From Escherichia phage HY01: a stretch of DNA of 64,000 bases. The position numbers were made by a program, and so were the translations under genes. The notes under the pieces are model-generated. The model worked only from the letters and a program-made list of their open reading frames with translations, was not told the DNA's origin and made no database searches. Positions 51,286 to 54,835 of this stretch are shown here, one piece after another. Numbering within the stretch: position 1 is the stretch's first letter; each line of letters opens with the position of its first letter. The stretch lies in sequence record NC_027349.1, one strand, 5' to 3'.

Positions 51286-54024
51286 ATGGCTACTTTAAAA
51301 CAAATACAATTTAAAAGAAGCAAAACTGCAGGAGCACGTCCTGCCGCTTCAGTATTAGCCGAAGGTGAATTGGCTATAAACTTAAAAGACCGCGTACTTT
51401 TTACTAAAGATGACCAAGGAAATATCATTGATCTGGGTTTTGCTAAGGGCGGTAGTATTGACGGGAATGTTATTCATATAGGAAACTATAATCAAACTGG
51501 TGATTATACTTTAAATGGCACCTTCACTCAGACAGGTAATTTTAATTTAACTGGTATTGCTCGAGTAACTCGCGATATTATTGCCGCCGGGCAGATTATG
51601 ACTGAGGGCGGAGAACTTATTACAAAAAGTTCAGGTACATCACATGTTCGTTTTCATGATTCGGCTGATCGTGAACGTGGAATCATTTATGCCCCGGCTA
51701 ATGATGGATTAACTACGCAAGTAGTTAATATCCGCGTTAAAGACTACGCCGCTGGTGATGAAAGCACCTATGCATTTTCAGGCAGTGGCCTATTTACTTC
51801 ACCTGAAGTATCAGCATGGAAATCTATGTCAACTCCTCAGATTTTGACAAATAGAGTTATTACTAATAATAAATCTACGAGCGATTATGACATTTATTCT
51901 ATGGCAGACAACGTTCCATTGTCTGAAAGCACTACTGCTATTAATCATCTCCGTGTTATGCGCAATGCTGTAGGCGCTGGTGTATTCCATGAAGTTAAAG
52001 ATAATGATGGAATAACTTGGTATACTGGAGATGGTTTAGACACTTATCTTTGGTCGTTTACCTGGTCCGGTGGATTGAAAGCAGGCCATTCTATTTCTGT
52101 TGGTACTCCTGGTGGCAATAAAGGATACTCTGAATTAGGGACTGCTTCAATTTCTCTTGGCGATAATGATACCGGATTAAAATGGTATCAAGATGGTTAT
52201 TTCTATGTAGTAAACAATGGTACGAGAACTTTCCTTTATAGTCCTGAATCAACCGTAAGCCTTAGAAAAATGGTTATGGGTTATTCTGTAAATGGCAATG
52301 ATTTGACTACTCCTCCGACTGAAAACTATGCTTTGGCTACTGTCGTGACATATCACGATAATAACGCGTATGGTGACGGTCAGACTCTTTTAGGATATTA
52401 TCAAGGCGGTAACTATCATCATTATTTCCGCGGTAAGGGTACTACAAACATTAATACTCACGGTGGTTTATTAGTCACTCCTGGTAATATTGACGTTATT
52501 GGTGGTTCTGTTAATATTGATGGTCGTAATAATTCTTCTACACTGATGTTTAGAGGTAACACAACTGGTAGCAGTTCAGTTGATAATATGACAATTTCTG
52601 TATGGGGTAATACGTTTACTAATCCTAGTGTAGGTAATCGTAAAAACGTCATGGAAATTTCTGATGCAACTAGTTGGATGAGTTATATTCAAAGACTTAC
52701 TACCGGTGAAGTAGAAATGAACGTCAACGGTTCATTTGAATCATCCGGTGTTACTGCTGGAAATAGAGGAGTTCACACAACAGGTGAAATTTCATCTGGA
52801 GCAGTGAATGCGCTTCGCATTTGGAACGCAGATTATGGAGCCATTTTTAGACGTTCAGAAGGCAGTCTTCATATTATTCCAACTGCTTACGGTGAAGGTA
52901 AACATGGTGATATCGGTCCACTTCGCCCGTTTAGTATGGCTTTAGATACTGGTAAAGTTACTATTCCAGATTTACAATCAAGTTACAATACGTTCGCAGC
53001 AAACGGTTATATTAAATTTACTGGTCATGGCGCGGGCGCTGGTGGTTATGATATTCAATATGTTCAAGCAGCTCCTGTTTTCCAGGAAATCGATGATGAT
53101 GCTGTAAGCAAATATTATCCTATTGTTAAACAGAAGTTTTTAAATGGTAAAGCCGTTTGGTCTTTAGGTACTGAAATTAGTTCAGGTACATTCGTTATTC
53201 ATCATCTGAAAGAAGATGGTTCACAAGGCCATACGTCTCGTTTTAATCAAGACGGTACTGTTAACTTCCCGGATAACGTTCTGGTCGGCGGTGGCGAAGC
53301 TGCTATTGCTCGTAATGGTAACCAGGAAAATGCTAGCGATCCGCAAGCTATCTTCGAATTCCACCATAATGGAAACATGTACGTTCCTGACATGGTTAAA
53401 GCTGGAGTAAGAATATCAGCTGGTGGAGGTGATCCTGCATGGACAGGCGCATGTGTTGTTATTGGTGATAATGATACTGGTTTAGTCCATGGTGGTGACG
53501 GCCGAATCAATATGGTTGCAAATGGAGTGCATATTGCTTCATGGTCGGCCGCTTACCAACTCCATGAAGGTCTTTGGGATACTACTGGTGCTTTGTGGAC
53601 TGAGCAAGGAAGAGCTATTATTTCTTTTGGTCATTTAATTCAACAAAGCGATGCCTATTCAACATTTGTCCGTGATGTTTATGTCCGTTCTGATATTCGT
53701 GTTAAAAAAGACCTTGTTAAATTTGAAAATGCTTCTGAGAAGCTTTCTAAAATTAACGGTTACACTTATATGCAGAAGCGAGGCTTAGATGAAGAAGGCA
53801 ATCAGAAATGGGAACCTAACGCCGGTTTGATAGCTCAAGAAGTTCAAGCTATTTTGCCTGAATTAGTTGAAGGTGACCCTGATGGCGAAGCTTTACTTCG
53901 TTTGAACTATAACGGTGTAATTGGTTTAAATACAGCTGCAATCAATGAGCATACTGCAGAAATTGCAGAACTTAAATCAGAAATCGAAGAACTTAAAGCA
54001 TTAATTAAATCATTGTTAAAATAA
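51286..54024 (+). CDS. 37: Long tail fibre distal subunit gp37 (T2/T6-type, with C-terminal intramolecular chaperone-like domain)
   Basis: 912 aa, shorter than T4 gp37 (~1026 aa); conserved N-terminus; C-terminus carries SDIRVKK followed by a coiled-coil. Confidence 0.9.
53689..54021 (+). other. Putative self-cleaving intramolecular chaperone (peptidase S74-like) C-terminal domain of gp37
   Basis: Motif S802-D-I-R-V-K-K then ~105 aa ending in a heptad-like coiled-coil ([20 protein letters not shown]), as in IMC domains of other phage fibres. Confidence 0.55.
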
Positions 54025-54055
54025 TAAGAGGGGCTTCGGCCCCTTGGAGGTTTAT

Positions 54056-54835
54056 ATGGCAGTAGCAGGACCGTGGGTAGGATCGTCTGCAGTAATTAAT
54101 ACAGGACAAAATTGGATGGGTGGCGCGGCCCAACGATTAAGAATGGGTGCTCCATTTTGGATGAGTAATATGATAGGTCGATCTGTTGAAGTAATTCACA
54201 CGCTTGGAGCAGACCATAACTTCAATGGTCAATGGTTCCGAGATAGATGTTTTGAGGCAGGTAGTGCACCTATAGTGTTTAATATTACTGGAGATTTAGT
54301 ATCATATTCTAGAGATGTTCCTTTATTCTTCATGTACGGAGATACACCTAATGAATACGTTCAACTGAACATACACGGCGTAACGATGTATGGTCGTGGT
54401 GGGAATGGTTGGGCCGCTGGTGCAATTGGAGCATCTGATGGCGGTGTATGTATCCAGAATGATATAGGTGGACGTCTGCGAATTAATAATGGCGGAGCTA
54501 TTGCCGGTGGCGGCGGTGGCGGCGGTGGTTATTCACAAGCCAACAACTGGGCGGGAAAATATGTTTGCGGTGGCGGTGGCGGTCGTCCATTCGGCTTAGG
54601 CGGAAATAATGGTGCTCGATGGCCTGGTGGTAATGCTAGTTTGACGTCTCCGGGTGCTGGCGGTAATACTGGTACAGGGTATTATGCAGGTGGAGGTGGT
54701 GAAGTTGGTCAGCCAGGACAATATGCTAATCCAGGTTCTGGTTATTCAACACCTCCGACAAATCCTGGTGCTGCTGTAGCAGGATCAGCTCCAACATGGC
54801 AAAACGTTGGAGCAATATATGGTTCAAGAGTATAA
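54056..54835 (+). CDS. 38: gp38 receptor-binding adhesin (T2-type, glycine-rich motifs separating variable segments)
   Basis: Track start is TTG; ATG at 54056 with GGAGG Shine-Dalgarno gives 259 aa; poly-Gly motifs [24 protein letters not shown]. Confidence 0.85.

Follow-up and report, generated by a model that had tools for sequence, protein, structure and literature searches.

Phage T4 contacts its receptor through the C-terminus of gp37, and its gp38 is a chaperone with no structural role. T2 uses OmpF/FadL as its receptor and T6 uses Tsx, and gp38 adhesins of various kinds use Tsx, OmpA, OmpF or OmpC. The gp37 of phage S16, at 749 aa, is shorter overall than that of HY01. For T2 and T6 (Drexler, Riede and Henning 1986-87), a passage of PMC3157838 citing Drexler 1986 describes C-terminal processing of gp37 followed by capping with the gp38 adhesin, as we propose for HY01; the adhesin is a protein of about 260 aa with glycine-rich motifs and hypervariable segments, like that of HY01. 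In S16, whose fibre tip has been solved (6F45; Dunne et al. 2018), gp37 is cut at a documented site and releases its last 113 residues (PMC7917993), and gp38 recognises Salmonella OmpC. The gp38 of PP01 binds OmpC of E. coli O157 directly, and cross-linking together with mutagenesis has located the contacts (Terasaki et al., mBio 2026, PMC12892980). When PP01 was passaged on O157:H7, deletions of 579-686 bp in gp37 arose repeatedly, a few passages being enough (Akusobi et al. 2018, PMC6027323).

We analysed a 64,000-nucleotide stretch of DNA (the window) whose gp37 and the long-tail-fibre distal subunit of Escherichia phage HY01 (P0001) share 100% identity, and which matches PEC04, the sister phage of HY01, with 99.5% identity across 24.5 kb. 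We are highly confident that at this locus HY01 (Tequatrovirus) encodes its long-tail-fibre tip module, one of the T2/S16/PP01 type. All features located below are on the + strand. Gene 36 (50621..51277) encodes gp36, the small distal half-fibre subunit (Pfam Phage_T4_gp36, E 4.8e-29). It is followed by gene 37 (51286..54024), an open reading frame for the 912-aa, 98.3-kDa precursor of the distal subunit, and by gene 38 (54056..54835), encoding a monomeric tail-fibre adhesin of 259 aa and 26.1 kDa (Pfam GP38 and Gp38_N). Holin t (54866..55522; Phage_holin_T, E 7.6e-117) is the downstream limit of the module. HY01 shares with T4 its gene order, its late transcription unit and the N-terminal portion of gp37. 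An exact T4-type late promoter box, TATAAATA (50590..50597), lies upstream of gene 36, directly after a terminator-like UUCG hairpin (50562-50583) and 24 nt before the gene 36 ATG. Presuming for this box the late-promoter role familiar from T4, it is likely to mark the start of a g36-g37-g38-t late transcript; matches to the box in the whole window number 11 against 9.2 expected, which is no enrichment over chance. The 31-nt spacer between the gene 37 stop (54024) and the gene 38 ATG (54056) holds a GC-rich hairpin with a UUCG loop, AGGGGCTTCGGCCCCT (54029..54044), directly 5' of the gp38 Shine-Dalgarno GGAGG (54046-54050). The hairpin may be a putative mRNA-stability or processing element; scanning 45000-57000 against Rfam gave no family. 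Antisense open reading frames of 61-87 aa occur within genes 37 and 38, and we take them as chance ORFs.

The gp37 reading frame begins MATLKQIQF. Residues 450-550 (52633..52935) match the Pfam shaft domain Gp34_trimer (PF21446, E 8.8e-8), and residues 418-561 match the gp34 fragments 4UXE/5NXF in the PDB at E about 1e-12, so that by sequence this region is a homologue of the gp34 C-terminal trimerisation domain. At the distal end, residues 720-912 align with the solved S16 gp37 tip and chaperone (6F45) at E 2.8e-43. The first part of this alignment, residues 720-801 (53443..53688), corresponds to the trimeric beta-helical tip of S16 (chain 6F45_A) and takes in a GDNDTGL motif and the strand preceding the cleavage site. 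From the description of the S16 structure, these residues would become the docking surface for gp38 once gp37 is cleaved.

The final 111 residues of gp37 (802-912, 12.3 kDa; 53689..54021), directly after the tip, form an intramolecular chaperone of the Peptidase_S74 family. The Pfam profile (PF13884) matches residues 802-861 with 48.8 bits (E 8.5e-13; curated gathering cut-off 22 bits) over positions 1-57 of 58, and its position 1 aligns on Ser802. In the motif SDIRVKK, Ser802 is followed five residues on by Lys807 (codon 53704-53706), a spacing shared with MYRF (S578/K583) and the dyad of endosialidase; the Ser-Lys dyad is documented in PMC3742443. Alignment of DLNVS^SDRRIKK in S16 with DVYVR^SDIRVKK in the window, where the caret marks the cut, together with the start of the profile, places the predicted autocleavage site at Arg801^Ser802 (53686..53691). 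Compared alone, the chaperone matches residues 93-204 of 6F45_A at E 3e-32 and, weakly, the MYRF ICA domain 7DC3 and tail fibre 8JOV; it measures 111 residues against 113 in S16, and PP01 gp37 has the same architecture with an identical chaperone region. In the last 34 residues (879-912; 53920-54021), 8 of the 10 a/d positions of the heptads are I/L/M/V, suggesting a coiled-coil-like helix. An AlphaFold2 monomer built from a 24-sequence alignment for the full-length homologue P0002 is poor overall (mean pLDDT 37.7, pTM 0.22), and the stretch matching this helix is its sole confident helix. Like HY01 gp37, K1F endosialidase and the eukaryotic MYRF ICA carry the domain C-terminally, with Ser-x4-Lys at its start and a helix at its end. 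However, the S74 domain follows an enzymatic tailspike in the endosialidase and a thin fibre tip in HY01, where, unlike in endosialidase and MYRF, its removal would also open a surface on which a second protein docks.

The first-pass annotation had read gp37 as a 912-aa protein with SDIRVKK from Ser802 and a self-cleaving-chaperone-like C-terminus. The open reading frame bears out the former, and the profile match, the aligned S16 site and the conserved Ser/Lys spacing argue for the latter. Cleavage of gp37 in HY01 is thus predicted from homologues and the literature; the HY01 paper itself identified the five major virion bands alone. For annotation, the predicted mature gp37 has 801 residues.

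Gene 38 had been listed by the program as an ORF of 263 aa starting at a TTG (54044..54835). We place its start at the ATG at 54056, since the TTG falls within the GC hairpin and GGAGG stands at 54046-54050. The resulting 259-aa protein is identical in the window, HY01 and PEC04. Its residues 1-40 (54056..54175) match the attachment domain Gp38_N (PF21721; 74 bits, E 9e-21, cut-off 25) and contain Trp7, Trp20 and Trp35, which align with the three tryptophans by which S16 gp38 is plugged into pockets of gp37. Residues 45-259 (54188..54832) match GP38 (PF05268; 243 bits, E 4e-72, cut-off 25) and, from the identity to 9V85, constitute the beta-helix and polyglycine-II sandwich receptor-binding domain. 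The Pfam scores of the S74 chaperone and of gp38 put these features well outside what chance would give. Here glycine makes up 33% of residues 115-259, with runs at G151-158 (8; 54506-54529), G172-176 (5; 54569-54583) and G212-215 (4; 54689-54700), just as the first reading of the sequence had described a 259-aa gp38 with poly-glycine motifs. [quoted passage not shown] S16 gp38 shares the three-domain architecture, the three docking tryptophans and the G8 run at residues 151-158, but has moderate identity and other loops. At full length, T6 gp38 (P0189) shows 60% identity, and the hypervariable loops of T2 and T6 differ from those of HY01, therefore their receptors differ.

These comparisons bear on whether HY01 could follow the T4 pattern, with the gp37 C-terminus binding the receptor and gp38 acting as an assembly chaperone absent from the virion. 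The g36-g37-g38-t order is that of T4, and databases label some homologues (e.g. wV7 and T6) as "distal long tail fiber assembly catalyst". Those labels, however, are legacy annotation from T4. HY01 gp37 ends in an S74 chaperone, and against the PDB at E <= 0.01 it finds the S16 gp37 tip and gp34 fragments and no T4 gp37 chain; likewise, the Pfam and PDB comparison of gp38 returned adhesin families and no T4-type chaperone gp38, and the receptor-binding domain is the one, at 222 of 223 residues, that was shown to bind OmpC directly. A T4-type arrangement is therefore extremely improbable. The module is of the T2 type, as proposed from the sequence at the outset, with PF05268 and PF21721 both present, matches to 6F45_D and 9V85, and no similarity in the PDB to the T4 gp37 tip.

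The receptor of HY01 is predicted to be OmpC from the PP01 experiments. In PP01, Ala228 of gp38 sits in the cleft between OmpC loops 5 and 7, Tyr230 cross-links to loop 7, and A228D or deletion of A228 abolishes infection (PMC12892980). The corresponding loop-E codons in HY01, found by comparison with PP01, encode Ser228-Gly229-Tyr230 (54737..54745), and A228S is the sole difference from the PP01 receptor-binding domain. Since a hydrophobic alanine is here replaced by serine, the geometry of binding may differ slightly. Position 228 is variable among relatives (A/S/N/H/V). We asked whether Ser228 marks a Shigella host range and rejected the idea: serine occurs in five of nine phages isolated on Shigella and four of 18 isolated on E. 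coli (Fisher p = 0.11, with 27 phages that are not phylogenetically independent), and phages with Ala228 isolated on Shigella exist, leaving no clean Ser228 rule. The expectation that loops of gp38 set host range has been demonstrated experimentally for the near-identical gp38 of PP01 and would by analogy apply to HY01.

Together these observations suggest the following path, in which we place great confidence as a whole, the deletion described below included. Gp37 would be synthesised as a 912-aa precursor whose residues 802-912 trimerise through the C-terminal coiled coil and template folding of the trimeric beta-helical fibre. Ser802 and Lys807 would then catalyse the cut between Arg801 and Ser802, so that the chaperone removes itself, and a single copy of gp38 would cap the newly exposed tip of the gp37 trimer, with Trp7, Trp20 and Trp35 of its N-terminal helical bundle entering three equivalent gp37 pockets. 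The C-terminal polyglycine-II sandwich would display the variable loops, of which D and E are expected to bind extracellular loops 5 and 7 of OmpC in E. coli O157 and presumably in Shigella. Because loops D/E are the parts that would contact OmpC, gp38 and not gp37 would set receptor specificity. The 3:1 gp37:gp38 capping and the binding of OmpC are drawn here from homologues and the literature. An in-frame loss of 576 bp at a 6-nt microhomology has removed a 192-residue module from the shaft.

This loss accounts for the length of HY01 gp37. Compared with the 1104-aa gp37 of PEC04, the HY01 protein lacks an in-frame 576 bp (192 codons), and it is short because of this deletion in the shaft. 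In a blastn comparison with PEC04, query 1-2036 matches subject 3001-5036 with 100% identity and query 2017-3550 matches subject 5593-7126, with the sole four mismatches within the 20-nt overlap. The sequence between positions 2036 and 2613 of the PEC04 gene has thus been lost, with both flanks 100% identical, and PEC04 residues 680-871 are absent from HY01. The junction (53302..53321) is an imperfect 20-nt repeat (16/20) with the microhomology TGGTAA at 53316-53321, and the protein reads ...AIARNGN/QENASDPQ... across it, the slash following Asn679. The deletion and its junction, like the sequence identities and domain matches above, are directly observed. The first-pass annotation was right that gp37 is shortened, at 912 aa, but took the 1026 aa of T4 as its yardstick, whereas the near relatives measure 1082-1114 aa; it did not see the cause of the shortness, an internal deletion relative to the phage's own lineage, with no bearing on the C-terminal chaperone or on T2 against T4.

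Among the 120 closest homologue clusters listed, 117 are 1082-1114 aa, long enough to hold the module, at 74-99% identity. The exceptions are HY01, the sole 912-aa gp37 in this set, Ec_MI-02 (900 aa) and P0072 (1051 aa), and P0072 keeps the module and lacks an N-terminal stretch. Ec_MI-02 carries a 627-bp deletion in the same module with other endpoints, which by sequence is independent of that in HY01. In searches to annotate the 192-residue module, the matches were a weak one to T7 gp17 (E 0.007) and a sub-threshold one to gp37_trimer (PF20744). Could the short form instead be ancestral, the module having been gained by the other phages? T-even fibre genes are well known for modular exchange, and T7 gp17, which the module weakly resembles, belongs to an unrelated fibre. 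Against such a gain stand the 117 long clusters, the junctions and sequence backgrounds of the HY01 and Ec_MI-02 alleles, which differ, and the 100% identity of the flanks, which dates the event after the split of HY01 and PEC04; we give it almost no credence and regard the deletion as younger than that split.

HY01 is named as a natural carrier of a gp37 deletion by Akusobi et al. (PMC6027323). Wild-type PP01 gp37 (1109 aa) has the 192-residue shaft module that HY01 lacks, and the evolved PP01 mutants have lost about 580-690 bp from the same part of gene 37, with junctions unlike that of HY01; the 579-bp deletion reported for PP01-E1/E3 fits a TCTGAT microhomology and the protein ...NIW/SDPQ. 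The HY01 loss falls within the interval of the PP01 class (~190-230 codons in gene 37, nt about 1945-2650) and belongs to the same class as the deletions obtained by passage. HY01 itself went through five plaque purifications and serial propagation on O157:H7 ATCC 43890, and is infectious (HY01 paper).

The 912-aa gp37 could instead reflect an assembly collapse, or a defective allele present in a minority, with infectious HY01 carrying the 1104-aa form. Genes 37 and 38 of PEC04 are identical apart from the 576 bp. Furthermore, the HY01 junction appears unique across the collections searched: it had no match in IMG/VR, JGI metagenomes or GTDB genomes, from which the intact boundary was retrieved as a positive control, nor was it among the best 25 phage records, and the contig index held no exact match to the HY01 gp37 protein. 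UFV-AREG1 offers a precedent, as it is listed among the deletion carriers in PMC6027323 but has a full-length gp37 of 1101 aa in its current record (KX009778.4), so that some deposited "deletions" may reflect lysate heterogeneity or assembly problems. Yet the HY01 deletion is exactly in frame, and 6 nt of exact homology (16/20 imperfect) is too short for an assembly collapse. Ec_MI-02 and four PP01 lines that evolved independently have deletions of the same module with other in-frame junctions, and PCR of the evolved PP01 lines gave no full-length allele. Five single-plaque purifications and propagation on O157:H7 are, moreover, the very condition that selects such deletions. We therefore judge an artefact to be improbable and treat the deletion as genuine.

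We favour a microhomology-mediated deletion over crossover between internal repeats. Unequal crossover between tandem homologous domains was examined and set aside: a blastp of the protein against itself was empty, local alignment scored 66 against 34 +/- 6 for shuffled sequences, and the weak self-similarity has an offset of about 222 aa against a deletion of 192 aa.

In PP01 the gp37 deletion alone gave faster adsorption, as measured in clone E3b, and the "trigger-happy" mechanism offered for it was called speculative by its own authors (PMC6027323). By analogy with PP01, the HY01 deletion may also speed adsorption. Instead of a "trigger-happy" baseplate, the deletion might disturb stowage of the fibre, whose shorter distal half would dock poorly in the retracted position along the tail and whiskers and leave the fibre extended for longer. 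It is general knowledge from T4 that T-even fibres alternate between retracted and extended states, and the rise in PP01 adsorption from the deletion alone fits with this. Alternatively, the module could serve as a spacer, with reach or stiffness altered when it is lost; we consider disturbed stowage unlikely.

A tip module of this kind is textbook, and both its arrangement and the HY01 deletion are already in the literature; our annotation is routine and correct, resolves no open question and describes no new kind of system. As a tentative proposal, which we would sooner doubt than accept, recurrent, selectable loss of the 192-residue gp37 shaft module may act in PP01/HY01-type phages as a "fibre-length switch" for adjusting adsorption kinetics or fibre deployment, and position 228 in loop E of gp38 may be a single-residue dial for OmpC variants (O157 versus Shigella); the two together would account for the dual O157:H7 and S. 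flexneri host range of HY01. Caution is warranted for the fibre genes of deposited phages propagated on O157:H7, which may carry laboratory-selected changes that alter adsorption. For phage engineering and biocontrol, the loops of gp38 offer a validated means of redirecting host range.

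We located the gene for gp37, the distal long-tail-fibre subunit (912 aa in the ORF list), at 51286-54024 and that for gp38, the adhesin capping the fibre tip, at 54056-54835 in the same orientation. The mechanical ORF list places the gp38 start at a TTG codon (54044) inside a GC hairpin (AGGGGCTTCGGCCCCT, 54029-54044), and GGAGG at 54046-54050 precedes an ATG at 54056. Thus, gp38 is 259 aa long, as the first-pass annotation had it. The genes for gp34, gp35 and gp36 lie upstream of gp37, and holin t lies downstream of gp38, followed by the oppositely oriented asiA...motA block (gene names per PEC04/AR1 annotation); this order is standard T-even synteny. 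A late-promoter box, TATAAATA, is found at 50590, ahead of gene 36. Directly before it, between g35 and g36, are a GC-rich hairpin with a UUCG tetraloop (50562-50583) and a T-run. The hairpin at 54029-54044, in the 31-nt g37-g38 spacer, is likewise GC-rich with a UUCG tetraloop and abuts the gp38 Shine-Dalgarno; a search of Rfam returned no match for either hairpin. Residues 58-127 of the hinge protein gp35 (49443-50558) match Pfam ILEI (interleukin-like EMT inducer / FAM3 fold; E 1.5e-8, 35.5 bits, cut-off 27).

Of the records in the phage collection, that of the sister phage PEC04, likewise classed as Tequatrovirus hy01, matches the window's DNA best (99.5% over 24.5 kb). Both phages share the same gp38, and HY01 gp37 is identical (100%) to a 912-aa protein (P0001) annotated as 'putative long tail fiber distal subunit'. 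Positions 1-2036 of gene 37 match PEC04 at 100%, and the PEC04 alignment resumes 576 bp further on. The four 'mismatches' between the two genes all fall inside the 20-nt overlap of two imperfect repeat copies (GCTATTGCTCGTAATGGTAA vs GCTATTATTCGTGTTGGTAA), whose exact common stretch at the break is TGGTAA. HY01 gp37 thereby lacks PEC04 residues 680-871 in frame (PEC04 locus L001, 5037-5612), a shaft module absent from the window, with the junction ...AIARNGN|QENASDPQ.... The first-pass annotation was right that gp37 is shortened, to 912 aa; its yardstick, T4, does not hold, as the loss is a 576-bp in-frame one relative to PEC04.

Among the best 120 homologue clusters, 117 have a gp37 of 1082-1114 aa, and the segment is absent in HY01 and in phage Ec_MI-02 (900 aa). 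A degenerate 28-mer for the HY01 junction (IARNGNQEN) was not found in IMG/VR, JGI metagenomes or GTDB genomes; the intact boundary, used as a positive control, was found in five IMG/VR contigs. A metagenome-derived homologue (P0072, 1051 aa) is missing about 53 N-terminal residues, a stretch of short repeats at about 55-107 of HY01 gp37, so that a second fibre region appears to tolerate deletion.

In Ec_MI-02, gene 37 lies at 12615-15317 and gene 38 at 15349-16143 of its locus (L008). Its junction, ...FPDNV|SDPQ..., is in frame and corresponds to 627 bp in PP01 coordinates; its gp38 (264 aa) has a different C-terminal type and resembles HY01 gp38 only in the N-terminal 56%. Because the endpoints, sequence background and gp38 C-terminal type all differ, the Ec_MI-02 deletion is an independent event. 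The Ec_MI-02 paper does not discuss it. The original HY01 paper never uses the word 'deletion', and the alignment in its BLAST table covers only 679 residues.

Deletions of this kind have been obtained experimentally. When phage PP01 was passaged on O157:H7, all four lines gained 579-686-bp deletions in gene 37, within nt 1945-2650 and within 2-3 passages, and a clone carrying the deletion alone adsorbed faster (Akusobi et al. 2018, PMC6027323). For the 579-bp deletion reported there, the break fits a microhomology of PP01, TCTGAT. The same authors remarked on a similar deletion in HY01 and grouped UFV-AREG1 with it as deletion-bearing (PMC6027323), whereas the current UFV-AREG1 record (KX009778.4, version 4; L007 201-3506) encodes a full-length gp37 of 1101 aa under the revised accession AOG16126.2. 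From this discrepancy, it seems that either the assembly was corrected or the stock is heterogeneous. HY01 came from swine faeces with E. coli O157:H7 ATCC 43890 as isolation host and went through five plaque purifications and serial propagation on this host; S. flexneri is a further host (PMC5201272). By analogy with PP01, the most economical reading would be that the short HY01 fibre is the same adaptation, and the deletion may have been selected during isolation and propagation on O157:H7.

We examined the deleted, dispensable shaft module itself. Its similarity to the upstream shaft is weak, local and out of register with the deletion. In PEC04 it contains NNWYIGKG...FYSY and weakly resembles a C-terminal fragment of the T7 tail fibre gp17 (4A0U); the short motif NNWYIG(K/R)G, common to the module and T7 gp17, is the only external match, and a weak one (E 0.007). 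A low-confidence AlphaFold monomer model places two helices at the module start.

Past the junction, gp37 ends as the first-pass annotation had proposed, in the arrangement of an auto-cleaving chaperone. Peptidase_S74 ('Chaperone of endosialidase', Pfam) covers residues 802-861, starting at profile position 1 (48.8 bits, cut-off 22). The motif SDIRVKK begins at residue 802, Lys807 lies five residues past Ser802, and I/L/M/V occupy 8 of the 10 heptad a/d positions in the last 34 residues, a coiled-coil-like end. In endosialidases and MYRF the catalytic dyad is a serine and a lysine five residues downstream (PMC3742443). The solved fibre tip of Salmonella phage S16 (6F45_A) aligns with gp37 720-912 (E 2.8e-43) and with the 111-residue tail alone (E 3e-32); the tail matches the MYRF ICA domain and another phage fibre more weakly. 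In S16, auto-cleavage at DLNVS^SDRRIKK frees the last 113 residues and exposes the gp38 docking surface (PMC7917993, citing Dunne 2018); the aligned HY01 stretch reads DVYVR^SDIRVKK. That T2 and T6 gp37 is processed at its C-terminus and then capped by gp38 has been known since Drexler et al. 1986 (PMC3157838). For HY01 the prediction is an 86.0-kDa mature gp37 spanning residues 1-801 and a 12.3-kDa chaperone fragment. A 303-aa protein from an E. coli assembly (P0204) carries Peptidase_S74, Gp38_N and GP38 in one ORF; it looks like the g37 3' end fused to g38, by loss of the stop codon or spacer or as a gene-calling artefact.

The poly-glycine gp38 proved to be the T2-type adhesin it had been taken for. 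It has G8, G5 and G4 runs, and between residues 115 and 259 every third residue on average is glycine, which raises G+C there to 0.49 against about 0.35 in the surroundings. Both gp38-adhesin Pfam families match strongly, S16 gp38 (6F45_D) aligns over the entire protein (E 9e-53), and the S16 docking tryptophans are kept at positions 7, 20 and 35. Residues 37-259 are identical to the crystallised PP01 receptor-binding domain (9V85) at 222 of 223 positions. Cross-linking and mutagenesis in PP01 show that loop-D Gly208 touches OmpC loop 5 and loop-E Tyr230 touches OmpC loop 7 (PMC12892980). Given these contacts and this near-identity, OmpC is strongly predicted as the HY01 receptor, which also supports the earlier suggestion that gp38 loops probably set host range.

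The sole difference from the PP01 domain is Ser228 (codon 54737-54739). PP01 Ala228 sits in a hydrophobic cleft that tolerates A228V and A228L but not A228D or deletion of A228 (PMC12892980). Across 27 PP01-type sequences, the domain varies mainly at 228 (A/S/N/H/V) and at loop-D 207-210, with scattered changes at 198, 213, 229, 232 and 236 and at several sites near the C-terminus; the concentration at 228 and 207-210 fits a contact-residue role. HY01, PEC04, pSs-1, Sfk20, sb2, sb3, ESh16, ECp13 and Ec_YwIITB1 carry Ser228, and the O157 phages CAM-21, G157lw and Ec_O157kw carry Asn228. We rejected Ser228 as a clean marker of Shigella hosts (Ser in 5/9 phages isolated on Shigella vs 4/18 on E. 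coli, Fisher p = 0.11, non-independent samples).

We propose that late transcription would start at the promoter before gene 36 and that the gp37 precursor would trimerise with its C-terminal chaperone as nucleus, as family membership suggests. The Ser802/Lys807 dyad would then cut the Arg801/Ser802 bond and the chaperone depart; judging from 6F45, the exposed trimer tip would take one gp38 via three tryptophans. Loops D and E of gp38 would engage OmpC loops 5 and 7, as in its near-identical PP01 counterpart. A shaft 192 residues shorter should give a shorter distal half-fibre and, by analogy with PP01, faster adsorption. Together, the observation behind the first-pass annotation is confirmed and its interpretation supported. 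The phage, module type, chaperone, adhesin structure (at 99.6% identity) and deletion are already published.
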